Shown in pieces: positions 2,502 to 31,011 of a DNA stretch of 64,000 nt (within the stretch, counting starts at the first letter, position 1; every line of letters starts with the position of its first letter). This DNA is from an uncultured bacterium (GTDB taxonomy: Bacteria; Patescibacteriota; Minisyncoccia; Phycocordibacterales; Phycocordibacteraceae), in the NCBI GenBank assembly GCA_937879955.1, contig CALFMK010000001.1:91504-155503 (forward strand), read 5' to 3'. The notes beneath the pieces were generated by a model that saw only the letters and a list, made by a program, of their open reading frames with translations, was not told the DNA's origin and did no database searches. The translations under genes were made by a program, and so were the position numbers.

Positions 2502-2930
2502 CTACTTCCAGAGGCCAAACGGCTTCGTGAGAGCCTTTATCTGCTCGTTCTCTCCGAAGACGCCGAGCCCGAGGAGCTCTATCTCGCCCGACGGCTTCGC
2601 CCTAAGGCTCTCCTCGAGCTCCCGGTCGTCGCTGTGGTCTATCATATTGCGGGCGAATGCCAGGTACAGCACGCCCTCCTTTCGTGCCTCGCTCAAAGCC
2701 TCATGGAGCGCCTCGGACGAATCCGCGCTCTTGAGGATGATCGGATACTGCGAATTCCTCGGGAACGCCACCCCGTCTGCAGCGATGAAGGCGTCACCGG
2801 TATCGAAATCCTCCCCAAGCCTGTTCCCGAGGTAGGCCGCGATGTGGGCTATAGCGTTCGCTGCCTGCCATCCCTCGATATCCTTCCGTACTACGATCGT
2901 CAGCCTCTTGGTGAAATCTTGCTCGGACAT
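2502..2930 (-). CDS. DUF2000-family protein
   Basis: 142-aa ORF reading MSEQDFTKRLTIVVRKDIEGWQAANAIAHIAAYLG.... This matches the conserved pattern of the DUF2000 family. Confidence 0.55.
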   Translation of the reverse strand: MSEQDFTKRLTIVVRKDIEGWQAANAIAHIAAYLGNRLGEDFDTGDAFIAADGVAFPRNSQYPIILKSADSSEALHEALSEARKEGVLYLAFARNMIDHSDDRELEESLRAKPSGEIELLGLGVFGENEQIKALTKPFGLWK

Positions 2931-2939
2931 ACCTGAAGG

Positions 2940-3803
2940 TTAGCACTCCCTCGAGCAGAACACGCTCCTGTCGCTCGAGCACCCTTCGCAGACGATGAAG
3001 TGCTCGTGACAGAAGTCGTTCGCGCAGTTCACGTACTTCTCTGCTTTCGTACCGCACAGGTGGCAGACGCCGATGATCTCCCTATCGCCGCCGAAGTGCA
3101 TGGTCTTGCGTTTGTCGAAGGTGTAGAGCGAGCCGAGGAAGTCCTCTCCCGGGTACTTCTCCATGTAGCCGTGCATGCCGTTCTCGAGCTGGTACACGTC
3201 GCTGAACCCGTTCTCGAGAAGGAACGCGGACATCTTCTCGCAGCGTACGCCGCCGGTGCAGACCGTGAGCACGGTCTTGTCCTTCAGGCTCTCGAGCTTC
3301 GGGAGCGCCTTCGGGAGATCGCGCGAGTTCTCGAGCCCCGGGTTCACCGAGCCCTTGAAATGCCCGGAACGGAACTCGTAGTCGTTGCGCATGTCGACGA
3401 TCACGAAGTCCTTCTCCTCCTCGAACCAGCGCTTCAATTCCTCGGCCGGAAGATGGGTGCCGGTGCGCTTGGTCGGATCGATGGACGCCGGGAACTGCGT
3501 GCCCACGATCTCGTTGCGCACCTTCACGGAGAGCTTCGGGAACGCGTCTCCGGTCCCCTCGCTCCTCTTCACGTTCATGTCGCTGAATCGCGCATCCTCA
3601 AGGAGTTCCTCGGCGAACGCCTCGGTGTCCTCGTAGGAGCCCTCGACGGTCCCGTTCAGGCCTTCCTTCGCCACGAGGATGCGTCCGAGAAGGCCGTGCG
3701 CTGCTGCCCGCTCCCGGATCCACGCGGAAAACGCCTCCGGGTCCTCGACCGTGACGTACTTATAGAACAAGAGGATCTGCGTCTGTGCGGTAGCTGCCTG
3801 CAT
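2940..3803 (-). CDS. trhO: tRNA uridine(34) hydroxylase TrhO, a rhodanese-domain protein of the YceA/UPF0176 family
   Basis: 287 aa. It has a rhodanese fold with the diagnostic CTGGVRCEK active-site loop and a C-terminal Cys-rich tail (CHLCG...CEGC). Confidence 0.85.
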   Translation of the reverse strand: MQAATAQTQILLFYKYVTVEDPEAFSAWIRERAAAHGLLGRILVAKEGLNGTVEGSYEDTEAFAEELLEDARFSDMNVKRSEGTGDAFPKLSVKVRNEIVGTQFPASIDPTKRTGTHLPAEELKRWFEEEKDFVIVDMRNDYEFRSGHFKGSVNPGLENSRDLPKALPKLESLKDKTVLTVCTGGVRCEKMSAFLLENGFSDVYQLENGMHGYMEKYPGEDFLGSLYTFDKRKTMHFGGDREIIGVCHLCGTKAEKYVNCANDFCHEHFIVCEGCSSDRSVFCSREC

Positions 3804-26869: not shown

Positions 26870-26933
26870 GCGGAAACTATACACCCTGGAGATAGTGAAA
26901 AGATAAAGCCCCCTTTCGGGGGCGTTCTCTTTG

Positions 26934-27016
26934 TGCGCCGGGTTGGATTCGAACCAACGAAGGCCGAAGCCGACAGGTTTACAGCCTGTTGTAATTGACC
27001 ACTCTACCACCGACGC
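26934..27016 (-). tRNA. tRNA-Tyr, anticodon GUA, class II with a long variable arm. CCA is not encoded.
   Basis: I folded this by hand. The 7-bp acceptor stem is GCGTCGG/CCGGCGC with one G-U pair. The anticodon loop is CTGTAAA. The T-arm reads GGTTCGAATCC. The length of 83 nt includes the extra arm. It lies 30 nt downstream of tyrS. Confidence 0.8.
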
Positions 27017-27045: not shown

Positions 27046-28293
27046 TTATTTCAAAACCAGGACTAGGACATCCCGCTTCCCCTTCCTGAGGAGCCCCAGA
27101 CCCTCCTTGAAATCACTTTCATTGAGCTTCTGGTCTACGGATACCTTCTCGCCGTTCAGGCTGATGCCGTTCCCTTCGATGAGGCGGCGGGCGTCGCTCT
27201 TGGATGAGGCGAGGCTCGACGTGGCGAGGACGTCTACCACGGGAAGCCCCTTCGCGAGGTCCTTCCTGAGGACCGGAAGCGACGGCGCCTCCTTGAGTAC
27301 GACGGCGCGTGCTTCTTTGCCAAGCTCTGAGAGGCTCGTATCGCCGAAGAGCGCGCCGGACGCGGCCGCCGCTGCCTCAGCGAGCGCCTTCCCGTGCACG
27401 AGCTCCGTCATGGCGAGGGCGAGGGTCTTCTGCGCACTACGCGCGCCGGGGTTCTTCGCGTGTTCCCTGATGATGCGCTCGATCTCGTCGAGCGGGATGA
27501 AGCTGTAGATCTTGAAGTATGTCTCGAGTCCCTCGTCCGGGAGTTGGAGCCAGAACTGGTAGAAGGCGTACGGGGACGTCTTCTCCGCGTCGAGCCAGAC
27601 GGCGTTCCCTTCGGACTTGCCGAACTTCTTCCCGTTCGTGTCCGTGACGATAGGGCCCGTGAAGGCGAAGGATTCCTTCTGAAGCTTGCGGCGGATGAGC
27701 TCGACGCCCGAGAGGATGTTCGTCCATTGGTCCGAGCCCCCTACCTGCAAGTCGGCGCCCTTCTTCTGGTTGAGCATCAGGTAGTCGTAGCCCTGGAGGA
27801 GCGAGTACGCGAACTCGGTGTACGAGATGCTGTCGTCCGGGTCCTCGAGGCGGCGCTTGATGAGGTCGCGCTTCACGAGCTCGTTTATGGTGAAGTGCTT
27901 GCCGATGTCCCGAAGGAACTCGATGAGGCCGACCTTGAGGAGCCAGTCCGCGTTGTCTACCATCTCCACCTTCACGCCGATGATGCGCTGCATCTGTGCC
28001 TTGAGCGCCTTCTTGTTGGCTTCCACGAGCTTCGTGTCAATGAGAGGACGCTCGCCCTTCTCCTTCGGGTCGCCGATCATGCCGGTCCCGCCGCCCACCA
28101 GCAGGATGATGCGATGTCCGTCCTCGGAAAGCCGCTTCATGATGAGGAGCGGCACGAGGTGCCCCACATGGAGCGAGTTCGCGGACGGGTCCGCCCCGAA
28201 GTACACGGTGCGCTTCTTCTCGAGGATCTTCTCTATGGGTGCCGAGACGTGCTCGACGAGCCCGCGTGCCTTGAGTTCTTCAGCCAGGTTCAT
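27046..28293 (-). CDS. tyrS: Tyrosine--tRNA ligase with a C-terminal S4 domain
   Basis: The internal start is MNLAEELKARGLV. The HIGH motif reads GADPSANSLHVGH and KMSKS reads KFGKS. The C-terminal S4-like domain is present. The tracked ORF has a 40-aa artefactual extension. Confidence 0.9.
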   Translation of the reverse strand: MNLAEELKARGLVEHVSAPIEKILEKKRTVYFGADPSANSLHVGHLVPLLIMKRLSEDGHRIILLVGGGTGMIGDPKEKGERPLIDTKLVEANKKALKAQMQRIIGVKVEMVDNADWLLKVGLIEFLRDIGKHFTINELVKRDLIKRRLEDPDDSISYTEFAYSLLQGYDYLMLNQKKGADLQVGGSDQWTNILSGVELIRRKLQKESFAFTGPIVTDTNGKKFGKSEGNAVWLDAEKTSPYAFYQFWLQLPDEGLETYFKIYSFIPLDEIERIIREHAKNPGARSAQKTLALAMTELVHGKALAEAAAAASGALFGDTSLSELGKEARAVVLKEAPSLPVLRKDLAKGLPVVDVLATSSLASSKSDARRLIEGNGISLNGEKVSVDQKLNESDFKEGLGLLRKGKRDVLVLVLK

Positions 28294-28313
28294 GTGTAGG
28301 ACTATACCAGAGC

Positions 28314-28341
28314 TTGACAAATTACTACTTATCGCTATTGT
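28314..28341 (+). promoter_or_regulatory. Sigma70-like promoter driving the GNAT leader transcript
   Basis: TTGACA, a 16-nt spacer, then TATTGT. It lies about 35 nt upstream of the leader ORF's RBS. Confidence 0.4.
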
Positions 28342-28377
28342 GGATTCATGACGCACAACCGCGGCAATGTAAAGGAG

Positions 28378-28428
28378 ATGAAGACCGGGTCTATCTATGA
28401 CCTTGCTATTCATCTTGCTTACGCATAG
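28378..28428 (+). CDS. Candidate 16-aa leader peptide reading MKTGSIYDLAIHLAYA
   Basis: The RBS AAAGGAG sits directly upstream of the ATG. A terminator hairpin follows 35 nt after the stop, and the GNAT gene follows 100 nt after the stop. Confidence 0.35.
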   Translation: MKTGSIYDLAIHLAYA

Positions 28429-28463
28429 CCGCGATTTTTCTTCCTCACGTTTCTAAAGAAGGA

Positions 28464-28500
28464 CCTCGGCTCTGCGGAAGCCGAGGTTTTCTCGTCTTTT
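28464..28500 (+). terminator. Intrinsic terminator or attenuator in the leader of the GNAT gene
   Basis: CCTCGGCT-ctgcggaa-GCCGAGG followed by TTTTCTCGTCTTTT. It ends 30 nt before the GNAT ATG, and there is no upstream plus-strand gene for it to terminate. Confidence 0.5.
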
Positions 28501-28530
28501 AGCAGAGCATGTTCTTTGAAAGGAACGGCA

Positions 28531-29184
28531 ATGACCGACCATTTCATCATCTATGAAGGAATCCGCATCTCCTTGGCGCTGATCCAGAAAACATACGGGT
28601 CCGAATACATCCTGTGGCCGAATCGACGCATCGATATAAGCGGCACGCTCCAACGCGGCCCCTATTGGCCCGAGGACTTCGACGAATGGGTCGATAGGCT
28701 CCGGAAAGATAAGGGCAAGAACGAGGCATTCGCGGTCCTCGTGCACGGAGGAGAGTTATCAACGCGCACGTATCGGTATATCGGGCATATGGGTATCCAC
28801 AGCATCTCGTGGCCGAGCGGATACGCCACGACCGGCTCCGTTCTCGGAGGCGACGATGCCCGTGGCAAAGGATACGGGACCGAGGCGAAGCTCTGGACGC
28901 AGTACCACGCGTTCATGGTCCTCGGCCTCCGGAAGCTTTCTTCCGAGGTGAAGGCGTTTAACGCCGGAAGCCTCGGACATCTGCTTAAGTGCGGATACCG
29001 CATCATCGGCCGCCGGAAGGCTCACGACTTCCATGAAGGAAGCTTCGTGGACACTATTATCCTCGAATGCTTCCGCGAGGACTGGGAATCCATCTGGAAC
29101 GAGTACCGTTCCTCGGAGAAGCTCCCGAAGCTTTCAGAAGCGCAGCGGAGGCTCGTGCGAAGAGAGACTAATCAAAAAGACTGA
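28531..29184 (+). CDS. GNAT-family N-acetyltransferase, Acetyltransf_3 or RimJ/RimL-like
   Basis: The ATG at 28531 is preceded by AAAGGAA. The acetyl-CoA-binding motif region reads GGDDARGKGYGTEA. The GC content of about 56% is intermediate. Confidence 0.75.
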   Translation: MTDHFIIYEGIRISLALIQKTYGSEYILWPNRRIDISGTLQRGPYWPEDFDEWVDRLRKDKGKNEAFAVLVHGGELSTRTYRYIGHMGIHSISWPSGYATTGSVLGGDDARGKGYGTEAKLWTQYHAFMVLGLRKLSSEVKAFNAGSLGHLLKCGYRIIGRRKAHDFHEGSFVDTIILECFREDWESIWNEYRSSEKLPKLSEAQRRLVRRETNQKD

Positions 29185-29226
29185 TAACACCAACCTAAAG
29201 CCGCTCCGGAAGGAGCGGCTTGTTCC

Positions 29227-31011
29227 TCACCGCAATGCCGTATCCAGAAACTCGACGATCTTAGGATAGGCATCGAGGCGATTTTTGAGCTTCGCTATCC
29301 CATGTCCTTCGTCGGAATATACAAGCAGTTGAACCTGCCTGCCGAGCATGCGTAGTTTCTCAACCACCTGCTCTGCCTCTGAAAGTGGTACGCGCGGGTC
29401 GTTCGTTCCGTGGATGACCAGTAGCGGTGCGCGCACCTTCTCGATAGCGTGTATCGGGGAGATCCTTTCCAAGAGCTCCTTGTCATGCTCAAGCGAGCCG
29501 TATTCCGCTTCACGAACTGCTCGGCGATACGGAGCGGTGTTCTCGAGGAACGTGACGAAGTTCGCGATTCCTAGCGTGTCGATTCCGGCGGCCCAGTACT
29601 CGGGATGGAACGCCAGGCAGGCAAGCACCATGAATCCTCCGTAACTAGCCCCAGAGAGAGCTATTCGACCGGCGTCTATGTCGGGTCTGTCTGCAAGATA
29701 GTCGCGCAACGCTACGATATCCTTTACTGAATCCAGTCGCTTTTCTACATCATCGAGCGCTTGATATGTCTTTCCATATCCCGTGCTACCTCGTACGTTC
29801 GGTGCGACCACAGCATACCCGTGATGTACCAAGTACTGCGTGAACGGCTGATATACCGACAGGTACTGCGATTCTGGACCGCCGTGTATATCAATCACAA
29901 CCGGCAGCCTTGCTCCTGGTTCGACTCCATCCGGAAGGTACATGAACGCAGGTATGGAAAGACCGTCAAACGAGTCATAACGGATGAGTTCAGGCTCTAC
30001 CATCGCTTCCGGTGGGACACCCTGGGTACTATAGGTGAGCTGTCGCGATACTCCCGTCTCGAGATCGAGCACCCATACGTCCATGGTGCGCCGTGAGTCT
30101 CCTAGAACGAATGTCACGAGAGAACCGCTCTCTGAGAAGCGCACTCGATAGATATTCCCGGCCGGAAATCGATATGTCCGAGTCTCGAACGTATGTGCAT
30201 CATGGAGGGAGACGTGCTTGTATCCTTCCTCGTTCACGATAACGGCAATGTTCGTGCCGTTGCGGTCTATGGTGAAGTCCTCTATGTCCCAGTCCGGCGT
30301 ATATACGTACTCGATGCTTCTTTTTGCAAGTGAATATCGTGCAAGGCCATTGAATTCGCGTCCCGCGTCTTGAATCAAGAAGAATGCTGATTCATCCGGA
30401 AGCCAGGATGCGCCCATGTAAAATACACTCCCTTCATGTGGAGTAAGGTGTTCGATACTACCCGTACCGAGATGTATGAGCACCAGATCAGTGTTCGCAC
30501 TCGAATCCTTTCTTCGTGCTGTCACATACGTTCCTTTCGGTGAGAATCCCTCCGCTGCGTTCCAGCCTCCGGTATCAAGGATGCATCGTCTCTCCTTTGT
30601 GTGCACGTCGAGTGTATATACATCAAAATCCTTTCCGTTCCTCTCGTTCGAGGAGAAACAAATATAATTTCCGTCCGAAGACCAGGCACCAAAGTCGTGA
30701 CGTGCGGCGGGCTGTGCGGTGAGATCTGTAACTATCCGTGTGTCTAAATTAAGTAGATAGAGCTGTGTCTGCTCGTTCCCGTCCTCTGCCTTACCAAATA
30801 TGAGAGTCTCTTCAACGGGAGAGAATCGTACGAAAGAGATAGAATCGTCGAAGTTTGTAAGCTGCTCTGGCTCGCCGCCCTCAACCGCGACGAGAAAAAC
30901 CTGGGACGTGCCAGTGCTGTTGCTCAAATAGGCGACATGAGATCCGTCAGGACTGAAACTTGGGTCTCCGCTCGCCCTGGTTTCGAGGAAATCTTTAATA
31001 CTGTATGCCAT
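29227..31011 (-). CDS. S9-family serine peptidase with an N-terminal beta-propeller, a prolyl oligopeptidase or acylaminoacyl-peptidase-like enzyme
   Basis: 594 aa. The N-terminus has TolB-like WD/propeller repeats. The C-terminal alpha/beta hydrolase carries GASYGG (the nucleophile Ser), plus Asp and His. The gene is about 52% GC against about 65% in the surrounding DNA. Confidence 0.85.
   Translation of the reverse strand: MAYSIKDFLETRASGDPSFSPDGSHVAYLSNSTGTSQVFLVAVEGGEPEQLTNFDDSISFVRFSPVEETLIFGKAEDGNEQTQLYLLNLDTRIVTDLTAQPAARHDFGAWSSDGNYICFSSNERNGKDFDVYTLDVHTKERRCILDTGGWNAAEGFSPKGTYVTARRKDSSANTDLVLIHLGTGSIEHLTPHEGSVFYMGASWLPDESAFFLIQDAGREFNGLARYSLAKRSIEYVYTPDWDIEDFTIDRNGTNIAVIVNEEGYKHVSLHDAHTFETRTYRFPAGNIYRVRFSESGSLVTFVLGDSRRTMDVWVLDLETGVSRQLTYSTQGVPPEAMVEPELIRYDSFDGLSIPAFMYLPDGVEPGARLPVVIDIHGGPESQYLSVYQPFTQYLVHHGYAVVAPNVRGSTGYGKTYQALDDVEKRLDSVKDIVALRDYLADRPDIDAGRIALSGASYGGFMVLACLAFHPEYWAAGIDTLGIANFVTFLENTAPYRRAVREAEYGSLEHDKELLERISPIHAIEKVRAPLLVIHGTNDPRVPLSEAEQVVEKLRMLGRQVQLLVYSDEGHGIAKLKNRLDAYPKIVEFLDTALR

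Follow-up and report, generated by a model that had tools for sequence, protein, structure and literature searches.

The 64,000-nucleotide (nt) stretch of DNA analysed here, referred to below as the window, comes from an uncultured member of the Patescibacteria (contig CALFMK010000001.1, positions 91,504 to 155,503). Between its tyrS gene and a divergent gene for a GNAT N-acetyltransferase lies a gap of 237 nt, which holds a promoter, a small open reading frame (ORF) and a hairpin followed by a U-tract. From comparison of related loci and modelling of RNA folding, this leader is probably a ribosome-mediated transcription attenuator of the kind known from trp leaders and from the upstream ORF (uORF) of whiB7, with a leaderless 26-codon ORF as its sensor. 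The leader and the genes on either side of it are composed as follows.

27046-28293, minus strand: tyrS, the gene upstream of the leader and divergent from it.
28314-28341, plus strand: sigma-70-type promoter, with the -35 box TTGACA (28314-28319), a 16-nt spacer and the -10 box TATTGT (28336-28341), matching 10 of 12 consensus positions.
28348-28428, plus strand: leader ORF of 26 codons, MTHNRGNVKEMKTGSIYDLAIHLAYA, with its ATG 6 nt after the -10 box and its TAG stop codon at 28426-28428.
28360-28433, plus strand: P1 hairpin (segment 1 paired with segment 2), enclosing codons 5-26 and the stop codon and leaving the first 12 nt, including the AUG, unpaired.
28417-28441, plus strand: segment 2, the 5' strand of the antiterminator, GCTTACGCATAGCCGCGATTTTTCT, made up of the last three sense codons, the stop codon and U-rich tract 1.
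28435-28443, plus strand: U-rich tract 1, TTTTTCTTC, directly after P1, conserved as GATTTTTCTTC and part of the antiterminator 5' strand.
28457-28481, plus strand: segment 3, the 3' strand of the antiterminator, AGAAGGACCTCGGCTCTGCGGAAGC, running from an A-tract through the 5' arm and loop of the terminator into the first bases of its 3' arm.
28460-28500, plus strand: intrinsic terminator (segment 3 paired with segment 4), with its core at 28464-28471 and 28479-28486, the loop CTGCGGA and a U-tract at 28487-28500.
28502-28519, plus strand: segment 5, with GCAGAGC (28502-28508), a potential pairing partner of GCTCTGC in segment 3, and then the box GTTCTTTGA (28511-28519).
28520-28524, plus strand: Shine-Dalgarno (SD) sequence of the GNAT gene, AAGGA, 6 nt 5' of the ATG at 28531 and conserved as GAAAGGA in related leaders.
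28531-29184, plus strand: gene for a 217-amino-acid (aa) GNAT N-acetyltransferase (Acetyltransf_3), the proposed regulated gene.

An initial annotation had read this gap as an attenuation switch composed of a sigma-70-like promoter, a strong ribosome-binding site (RBS) with a 16-codon ORF, and a terminator needed by no upstream plus-strand gene. The promoter and the terminator are present as described, and the upstream gene, tyrS, is indeed on the minus strand. The terminator arms CCTCGGCT and AGCCGAGG form 8 base pairs (bp), 6 of which are G-C, extended to 12 bp by pairing of the A-tract with the U-tract, and the tail TTTTCTCGTCTTTT ends at 28500. Such sites are not beyond chance by themselves: in 3 kb, three consensus promoter-like sites are seen against 1.1 expected, and three terminator-like sites against 2.1 expected. 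The RNA from 28345 to 28535 (plus strand) folds at -70.5 kcal/mol, with z = -5.7 relative to shuffled sequences. The feature is considered real because the whole arrangement is kept in more than 30 independent loci. A genome scan using one genome per species returned 34 loci, and metagenome contigs were scanned separately with a DNA pattern derived from the leader only and therefore blind to the downstream gene. No second copy of the leader was found within the 64-kb window.

Comparison of the related loci points to a different ORF from the one initially proposed. The 16-codon ORF does exist at 28379-28428, with AAAGGAG 7 nt before its ATG (28379), and reads MKTGSIYDLAIHLAYA up to the TAG at 28426-28428. 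It is the in-frame 3' part of the 26-codon ORF that begins at ATG 28348. Its SD sequence is not conserved, related leaders having GCAGAAATG or CACCGATG at this place, and in the window both AAAGGAG and the internal ATG are buried in the P1 stem. The upstream ATG, by contrast, has a fixed relation to the promoter. A TTGAC[AT] -35 box occurs at the same spacing from it in 30 of the 32 related loci, and in all 32 promoter-bearing loci the distance to the ATG is 34-37 nt from the first base of the -35 box and 5-9 nt from the -10 box, which places it at or beside the expected transcription start. It is in frame with a conserved TAG (inside GCATAGCCGCG) in each of the 31 aligned leaders, and the leader ORFs fall into five length classes of 66, 69, 72, 75 and 78 nt, all multiples of 3. 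In-frame stop codons occur in none of the 31 leaders in frame 0, versus 27 in the +1 and 9 in the +2 frame. The AUG and the first 11-12 nt or so are unpaired in all 31 folded leaders. On the basis of this promoter geometry and the unpaired AUG, the functional ORF is most likely the leaderless 26-codon one rather than the SD-led 16-codon one.

Selection appears to act on the open frame rather than on a particular peptide. Conservation within the leader ORF shows no significant 3-nt periodicity (p = 0.19), for which reason no claim is made for a functional peptide; this fits a uORF in which translation, not the product, matters, and such a uORF is reported for whiB7. Among leaders there is partial conservation of an N-terminal consensus, MNRN[CY]GY, at which the window has MTHNRGN. 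Relative to a crude background taken from the window, the early codons 2-12 of the 34 type-1 peptides, that is, those of leaders of the kind found in the window (28351-28383 there), are enriched in Cys (11.6-fold), Asn (6.1-fold), Met (4.4-fold) and Tyr (3.3-fold), the enrichment in Cys, Asn and Tyr not being universal among leaders. Codons 2, 4 and 7 are mostly NAY (Asn, His, Tyr or Asp), the codons decoded by tRNAs that carry queuosine; NAY at codons 2 and 4 is not explained by P1 pairing, since both sit in the unpaired 5' tail. Attenuation specific for one amino acid was considered and rejected: there are no codon runs, and Cys codons, common in many leaders, are absent from that of the window. 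In two loci, L005 (2809-2905) and L009 (2798-2895), the conserved TAG is mutated to GAG and CGG, respectively, which extends the ORF by 8 codons to 32 aa.

A second small ORF can be read further downstream. It comprises 15 codons (28509-28556; ATG TTC TTT GAA AGG ...) and overlaps the SD sequence and start of the GNAT gene in another frame. It was rejected as a second uORF because many leaders have ACG in place of its ATG (28509). A similar ORF in L015 and L016 terminates in an ATGA overlap with the GNAT start.

The RNA of the leader can form three helices that compete for the same segments. P1 has a minimum free energy of -32.9 kcal/mol in the window (z = -4.7) and is found in all 31 leaders as a single long hairpin reaching from about nt 12 through the stop codon plus CCGCGA (mean z -4.0; 29 of 31 below -2). 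In the 24-codon class, RNAalifold gives it 19 pairs, 12 of which have changed on both sides; 87% of cells are paired, compared with 33-44% when the partner is slid, and none of 500 shuffles reaches the covariation score. Applied to the full alignment, RNAalifold returns not P1 but the antiterminator, in which 28417-28441 pairs with 28457-28481. A search for such an alternative pairing had been suggested in the initial annotation, and it was successful. The antiterminator has 21 pairs, 5 of them changed on both sides, with 97.4% of cells paired compared with about 50% when slid; for example, the third base of a Cys codon and a base of the terminator loop are C-G in 16 leaders, U-G in 8 and U-A in 5. 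U-rich tract 1 takes part in this helix by pairing with the A-tract at 28455-28463. The terminator, kept in all leaders, has a hairpin energy of -19 to -21 kcal/mol and 94.6% of cells paired, and alignment columns 144 and 163 are U-A in 18 leaders and C-G in 10. For each of the three helices, pairing is far lower when the partner is slid and there are changes on both sides. They are mutually exclusive and correspond to the 1:2, 2:3 and 3:4 set of a classical attenuator. The conserved sequence of the terminator loop is accounted for by its being part of the antiterminator.

P1 is likely to be a pause hairpin or an anti-antiterminator, the former role resting on its resemblance to the trp pause hairpin: P1 followed by UUUUUCUUC looks like the structure that synchronises polymerase with ribosome in trp leaders. 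U-rich tract 1 could in addition be a pause or termination tract for P1. Further pairings lie downstream. Segment 5 forms 7 pairs with segment 3 (96.7% of cells paired), and a small nested hairpin, CGAG/CTCG (28482-28485 with 28491-28494), covaries (A-U in 18 leaders, G-C in 7). Between terminator and SD sequence every leader type has the box GTTCTTTGA(A/C)A, which occurs only twice in the 64-kb window. In the type-3 leaders described below it is the terminator U-tract itself, and in type 1 its place behind the helix of segments 3 and 5 resembles that of a U-tract belonging to a second, nested terminator.

A structure of this strength raises the question of a metabolite or ion riboswitch, in which P1 would be the aptamer, the choice of antiterminator or terminator would depend on ligand binding, and the presence of the ORF would be a coincidence. 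The z-scores of the whole leader (-5.7) and of P1 (mean -4.0), the covariation and the classic terminator/antiterminator expression platform are all compatible with it. However, a riboswitch needs neither an ATG at the predicted +1 in 32 of 32 loci nor a frame free of stops across five length classes in 31 of 31 leaders. Moreover, the interior of P1 is free in sequence and in bulges and offers no conserved unpaired core for a pocket, nearly all invariant bases being explained by the alternative helices, and no Rfam model matches. A search of the intergenic region against Rfam 15 gave nothing even at E <= 10; over the 64-kb window the sole match at gathering score was the tRNA-Tyr gene just downstream of tyrS; and searches of 12 related loci gave nothing, the consensus-like leader of L006 yielding noise only. 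On the basis of these searches of window, region and related loci a described RNA family, known riboswitches included, was rejected, and a riboswitch of any kind seems distinctly improbable.

The maintained ORF lends itself to another explanation, namely that the locus holds a small-protein gene with its own terminator, whose peptide of 22-26 aa is functional (as a toxin, a signal or a substrate of the GNAT or of a major facilitator superfamily (MFS) transporter), the downstream gene being expressed only by leaky read-through and no regulated switch being present. Pairs of a peptide with an acetyltransferase or exporter do occur in peptide natural-product loci, the nearest fold of the GNAT is a lasso-peptide acetyltransferase, and a terminated transcript of 150 nt would be abundant. 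Nevertheless, the non-significant periodicity gives no sign of coding-type constraint or of purifying selection on the peptide, which is highly variable and in its window version shares few residues with the consensus. In addition, a covarying 21-bp antiterminator spanning the last ORF codons and the terminator loop would lack a purpose. This explanation is considered unlikely.

The behaviour expected of a ribosome-mediated attenuator was examined by folding each leader to the end of the terminator stem with 28 nt masked around a chosen P-site codon. The terminator probability is 0.9 or more in 27 of 31 leaders folded as free RNA. In 25 of those 27 it drops to about 0-0.1 when the P-site is placed at about codons 3-12, and from about codon 13 to the stop codon it is back at about 0.9. 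The window leader folds as free RNA into P1 plus terminator (-52.4 kcal/mol), with a ribosome at codon 8 (nt 10-37 masked) into the antiterminator, and with a ribosome at the stop codon into the terminator. The two leaders with a mutated TAG, L005 and L009, both favour the antiterminator as free RNA.

The same calculation bears on the erm/cat-like mode that the initial annotation had proposed, in which a stall on the SD-led 16-codon ORF would open a hairpin masking the RBS of the GNAT gene. The AAAGGAG 7 nt before ATG 28379 would suit such a mode, as would the in-frame internal AUG found at codons 9-14 (28372-28381 in the window) in 26 of 34 leaders, and the SD sequence of the GNAT gene is predicted to be mostly paired. 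However, a good SD sequence precedes the internal AUG in the window only and is buried in P1 there. The mean unpaired probability of the GNAT SD is 0.26 whether the RNA is free or carries a ribosome at codon 8; since predicted accessibility is the same in both states, no translational layer of the erm/cat type is seen, and control by unmasking of the RBS was rejected. The regulated hairpin is a terminator with a U-tract that ends 20 nt upstream of the GNAT SD, and the predicted design is one of transcription attenuation. Translational attenuation is the least probable of the alternatives weighed here, and very improbable. What survives of the earlier proposal is thus the switch as such: on the comparative and folding evidence, promoter, leader ORF and terminator would act together to attenuate expression of an inducible acetyltransferase, while the identity of the ORF and the erm/cat mode need revision.

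The genes that follow the leader are of a recurrent kind. Among the loci of the genome scan, the same leader precedes 16 of 18 full-length GNAT orthologues, to which a partial match in L019 may be added, making 17 of 19 Patescibacteria GNAT loci. The two orthologues that have neither leader ORF nor terminator are L007 and L012. In the region 2700-3000 the former retains a small hairpin and TTTGTTCT and the latter CTCTTTGAGAGAAAGGA; these sequences look like remnants after leader loss, and the two genes may now be constitutive. The metagenome pattern scan gave 18 loci, with a GNAT homologue directly 3' of the leader in 16 and an MFS transporter in one, the last being cut by the contig end. The GNATs behind these leaders belong to two subfamilies, with 42-66% and approximately 35-40% identity to the window protein. 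The transporter, of 392 aa, is that of L048; the same leader is also found at a second MFS locus, L053, and the proteins of L053 and L048 are 76% identical. The genes upstream vary from locus to locus, and the leader travels with detoxification-type genes, not with tyrS. A link to phages or mobile elements was also considered and discarded: a viral-contig scan gave one match (L059:3565-3612), obtained with a relaxed 20-base pattern and attributed to chance, which is inside a phage structural gene and is accompanied by no other leader feature.

The window GNAT matches PF13302 (Acetyltransf_3) with E = 2e-11 (45.1 bits against a cutoff of 25.4), and all source-named members of a set of 167 homologues come from Parcubacteria, Paceibacterota or Patescibacteria. 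Its AlphaFold model has a pLDDT of 91.6, and Foldseek comparison with GNAT structures gave E values of 1e-12 to 1e-13. The nearest solved folds are a lasso-peptide Lys acetyltransferase, SpeG spermidine acetyltransferases and RimJ, at 16-23% identity. Identification as SpeG was rejected; NCBIfam PRK15130 scores 16.4 bits against a cutoff of 218 and identity to SpeG structures is 16-21%, so that the resemblance is one of fold only. The enzyme may modify an antibiotic or a metabolite, as had been suggested at the outset, and the presence of the same leader before an MFS transporter lends this indirect support.

This range of downstream genes is also relevant to the possibility that a protein rather than the ribosome is the sensor. 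Such an RNA-binding factor, for instance one that is PyrR- or TRAP-like, or the GNAT itself, would attach to P1 or the 5' tail and stabilise or melt it. A binding site could be offered by the hairpin and by the single-stranded 5' tail AUGAAUCGAAAU, both of them conserved, and there is precedent in autoregulatory leaders with a terminator and an antiterminator, of which rplJL in B. subtilis is a reported example (PMC4538822). Against this, the occurrence of one leader before three unrelated proteins (the two GNAT subfamilies and the MFS transporter) speaks against a product that regulates its own gene, the maintained ORF has no explanation, and no candidate factor is linked to the locus, whose neighbours vary. 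Control by such a protein is therefore judged very unlikely, if somewhat less so than RBS unmasking.

Ribosome-mediated attenuation through the leaderless ORF remains the probable mechanism; the riboswitch, protein-binding and small-peptide explanations are weaker because none of them accounts for both the maintained ORF and the covarying antiterminator. Conservation of the element, maintenance of its ORF, the three mutually exclusive covarying helices and equilibrium switching between them are what computation has revealed; translation of the ORF, its coupling to transcription, the pausing role of P1 and the cause of any slowing of the ribosome are inferred. Transcription would start at the A of ATG 28348 or within a few nucleotides of it, and a 70S ribosome would load on the unpaired 5' AUG. 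The nascent RNA would first fold into P1 (28360-28433), enclosing the ORF and sequestering segment 2. If no ribosome were present, P1 would persist, segments 3 and 4 would pair (28460-28500) and RNA polymerase would stop about 30 nt before the GNAT start. Translation at normal speed would likewise lead to termination, the ribosome having passed codon 13 or covering segment 2 from the stop codon by the time segments 3 and 4 emerge. If, however, the ribosome were delayed within about codons 3-13, segment 1 would be covered and segment 2 left free for segment 3; the resulting 21-bp antiterminator would use up the 5' arm and loop of the terminator and allow read-through into the GNAT gene. The element would thus be a meter of ribosome speed or stalling that turns on a detoxification-type gene, be it this GNAT, the second GNAT subfamily or the MFS transporter. 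Our best guess is that the signal is translation stress in general, or else a compound, cationic or targeting the ribosome, that the GNAT or the transporter removes.

Several observations weigh against this mechanism. RNA pairing can account for most of the conservation at the amino-acid level, so that the peptide provides no independent proof of translation, and the leader ORFs contain neither regulatory codon runs nor a clearly conserved arrest motif that would point to the signal. P1 is very stable (-25 to -50 kcal/mol across leaders) and might hinder leaderless translation. The conserved segment 5 and the box GTTCTTTGA have no part in the model, which also presupposes coupling of transcription and translation in Patescibacteria. 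The mask folding assumes equilibrium and its mask is crude. Not all leaders conform to it: L004 and L008 terminate at every ribosome position, L053 hardly changes, L019 switches only in part, and in L005, L009, L017 and L040 the antiterminator is favoured, or the score low, even as free RNA.

The predicted design has counterparts in several well-known systems. Attenuators of the trp type comprise a 1:2 pause hairpin, a 2:3 antiterminator and a 3:4 terminator with a U-tract; an early stall gives read-through, and segment 2 is masked once the ribosome has reached the stop codon. The leader described here shares with those of trp, his and leu the four-segment design and, as far as predicted folding indicates, read-through only on an early stall. 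It differs from them in that there are no tandem regulatory codons, the regulated genes (GNAT, MFS) are not biosynthetic and the ORF is leaderless, whereas trpL of E. coli has an SD sequence. Leaderless trp, ilv and leu leader peptides occur in Corynebacterium. Leaderless uORF attenuators as such are indeed already known in Actinobacteria, the polycysteine uORFs of mycobacteria being described as leaderless short-ORF attenuators (bioRxiv 10.1101/834739). As in the actinobacterial attenuators, the sensing uORF would begin at the 5'-terminal AUG of the transcript and control the genes downstream. However, the actinobacterial uORFs have runs of codons for Cys or another cognate amino acid, which is the one they respond to, while here, in another phylum, Cys is enriched in many leaders and absent from that of the window.

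A close functional parallel is the whiB7 leader of mycobacteria and other actinobacteria. Efficient translation of its uORF leads to a folded Rho-independent terminator, and stalled or inefficient translation to an antiterminator and read-through (PMC10274678). It senses general translation stress, caused by ribosome-targeting antibiotics or amino-acid starvation, and its uORF varies in length and sequence between species, translation rather than the product being what matters (PMC10274678). The output of WhiB7 includes the GNAT acetyltransferase eis and the MFS efflux pump tap (PMC10274678). A short variable uORF, switching between terminator and antiterminator, and GNAT and MFS outputs are thus common to both. 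In contrast to whiB7, where the leader controls a transcription factor that activates eis and tap, the present leader directly precedes the gene for the GNAT or the MFS transporter, and WhiB7 plays no part. Its ORF is not Ala-rich like that of whiB7, is leaderless and lies wholly inside the 1:2 hairpin, and there is no kinship in sequence or at the level of Rfam.

Short leader ORFs also precede resistance genes. Examples are those of ermC, ermB, cat86 and cmlA; the erm and cat leaders are SD-led, have defined arrest motifs and act by unmasking of the RBS. The bmrCD genes are reported to use ribosome-mediated transcription attenuation (PMC4191407). In all of these a short leader ORF precedes a resistance gene that is induced by a stall in approximately the first 5-10 codons. 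The pair of cat, encoding an acetyltransferase, and cmlA, encoding an MFS protein, parallels the GNAT/MFS pair found here, although CAT is not a GNAT, and the erm and cat systems differ from the present one in the RBS unmasking, for which the test here was negative, and in not being leaderless. Another parallel concerns the gene products. The blt-bltD operon of B. subtilis combines an MFS exporter of spermidine and multiple drugs with a spermidine acetyltransferase, under a MerR-type protein. Like blt-bltD and SpeG, the genes considered here, a GNAT of SpeG-like fold and an MFS exporter under a shared type of control, would offer alternative ways of removing a cationic amine. They differ in that control is by a leader and not by a MerR-type protein, and the GNAT is only 16-21% identical to SpeG.

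The Patescibacteria are uncultured bacteria with very small genomes and few transcription factors, and almost nothing is known of their gene regulation. No attenuator, leader peptide or riboswitch of this kind was found for them in the literature, and the conserved switch has apparently not been described before. It would represent a first concrete and testable regulatory mechanism for a large part of the bacterial tree, and provides indirect evidence for leaderless translation and for transcription-translation coupling in this group. It also points to an inducible detoxification or resistance module, consisting of two GNAT subfamilies and an MFS transporter, the substrate of which could be found via the inducer of the leader. 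Being compact (about 185 nt) and self-contained, the element can be tested in heterologous or cell-free systems, with no need for culturing. It merits an entry in RNA-family and small-ORF annotation, since these loci are now annotated only as 'GNAT family protein' and the intergenic gap of 240 nt before the gene is unaccounted for.

Different leaders built on the same plan are found before other genes of these families, namely the MFS orthologues L054-L058 and the GNAT paralogues L020, L021, L023, L024 and L025. They have a TTGACA promoter, an ATG a few nucleotides after the -10 box, an ORF of 31-46 codons, a terminator and the GTTCTTTGA(C/A)A box, together with a segment further upstream, located inside the ORF or at the end of it, that is complementary to the 5' arm and loop of the terminator (z -1.6 to -6.0 relative to shuffles). 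The terminator loops differ between leader types and are matched by complementary changes next to AGCCG. The regions concerned are the following.

L054:1250-1500, L055:1260-1500, L056:1215-1500, L057:1265-1500 and L058:1255-1500: type 2 leaders, upstream of MFS transporter orthologues.
L020:2560-2760, L023:2690-2880 and L024:2570-2760, and L021:2630-2850 and L025:2530-2760: further leader types, before more distant GNAT paralogues.

In type 2, the promoter is TTGACA and the ATG lies 6-7 nt after the -10 box. An ORF of 41-46 codons (e.g. MVHKNQAVNTCYALPRMWALFVISDGQPNALISSRDFCKTS) is accompanied by TATCTAGCCGYGATTTTTGT, the terminator ACCTCGGCTGGATARAAGGCCGAGGTCTTTT and GTTCTTTGACAA, and the terminator loop GGATA is complementary to TATC immediately 5' of TAGCCG. 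Although GTTCTTTGACAA contains TTGACA, it was rejected as a second promoter, no -10 box being present at 16-18 nt in any leader type. The further types, from Kerfeldbacteria, Nomurabacteria and others, have near-leaderless ORFs of 31-40 codons, and three type-3 peptides share the ending ...LPGRCWYMK(K/M). In these the ORF segment GGTTCTGCCGGGACGC is complementary to the terminator 5' arm and loop CGCTCCGGCAGAATC (z -2.4 to -4.8). Ribosome-mask folding gave mixed results on types 2 and 3, and the mechanistic claim is for this reason limited to type 1.

The shared plan may be that of a superfamily: a promoter, an ATG at +1, an ORF of 22-46 codons, an antiterminator competing for the terminator 5' arm and loop, the terminator and the GTTCTTTGA box. 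It is a tentative possibility, doubtful at present, that the Patescibacteria (Candidate Phyla Radiation) possess a modular superfamily of leaderless-uORF attenuators, of at least three sequence types, that wires ribosome stalling directly to GNATs and MFS exporters. If true, this would be a counterpart of the actinobacterial WhiB7 resistance regulon that is free of transcription factors. In the strongest version of this idea, nascent peptide and ribosome would sense a specific cationic compound originating in the host or the community, for example a polyamine or an antibiotic that targets the ribosome, and the GNAT or the MFS transporter would then remove it.

Three further features flank the locus.

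26933-27016, minus strand: tRNA-Tyr (GTA) gene, about 30 nt 3' of the tyrS stop codon and on the same strand.
29200-29219: hairpin GCCGCTCC-GGAA-GGAGCGGC, between the convergent GNAT and S9 prolyl-oligopeptidase-family genes.
29227-31011, minus strand: S9 prolyl-oligopeptidase-family gene, convergent with the GNAT gene.

The hairpin at 29200-29219 is probably a shared bidirectional terminator, which would make the GNAT gene monocistronic. On the other side, the tyrS and leader promoters are divergent and almost back to back. The ATG of tyrS (reverse complement of 28291-28293) is preceded at a distance of 7 nt by an extended -10 box, TGGTATAGT (reverse complement of 28301-28309), and the tyrS genes of L001, L014 and L047 have the same arrangement. 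To judge from this distance, tyrS itself appears to be leaderless, and leaderless starts therefore seem normal in the lineage. A T-box leader comprises 200-300 nt with a specifier loop and a T-box sequence 5' of an aminoacyl-tRNA synthetase gene. A T-box or other leader belonging to the adjacent tyrS was rejected, there being no T-box match in Rfam and no room for a leader in the 7 nt between -10 box and ATG. Finally, tyrS and its cognate tRNA-Tyr may be co-transcribed.

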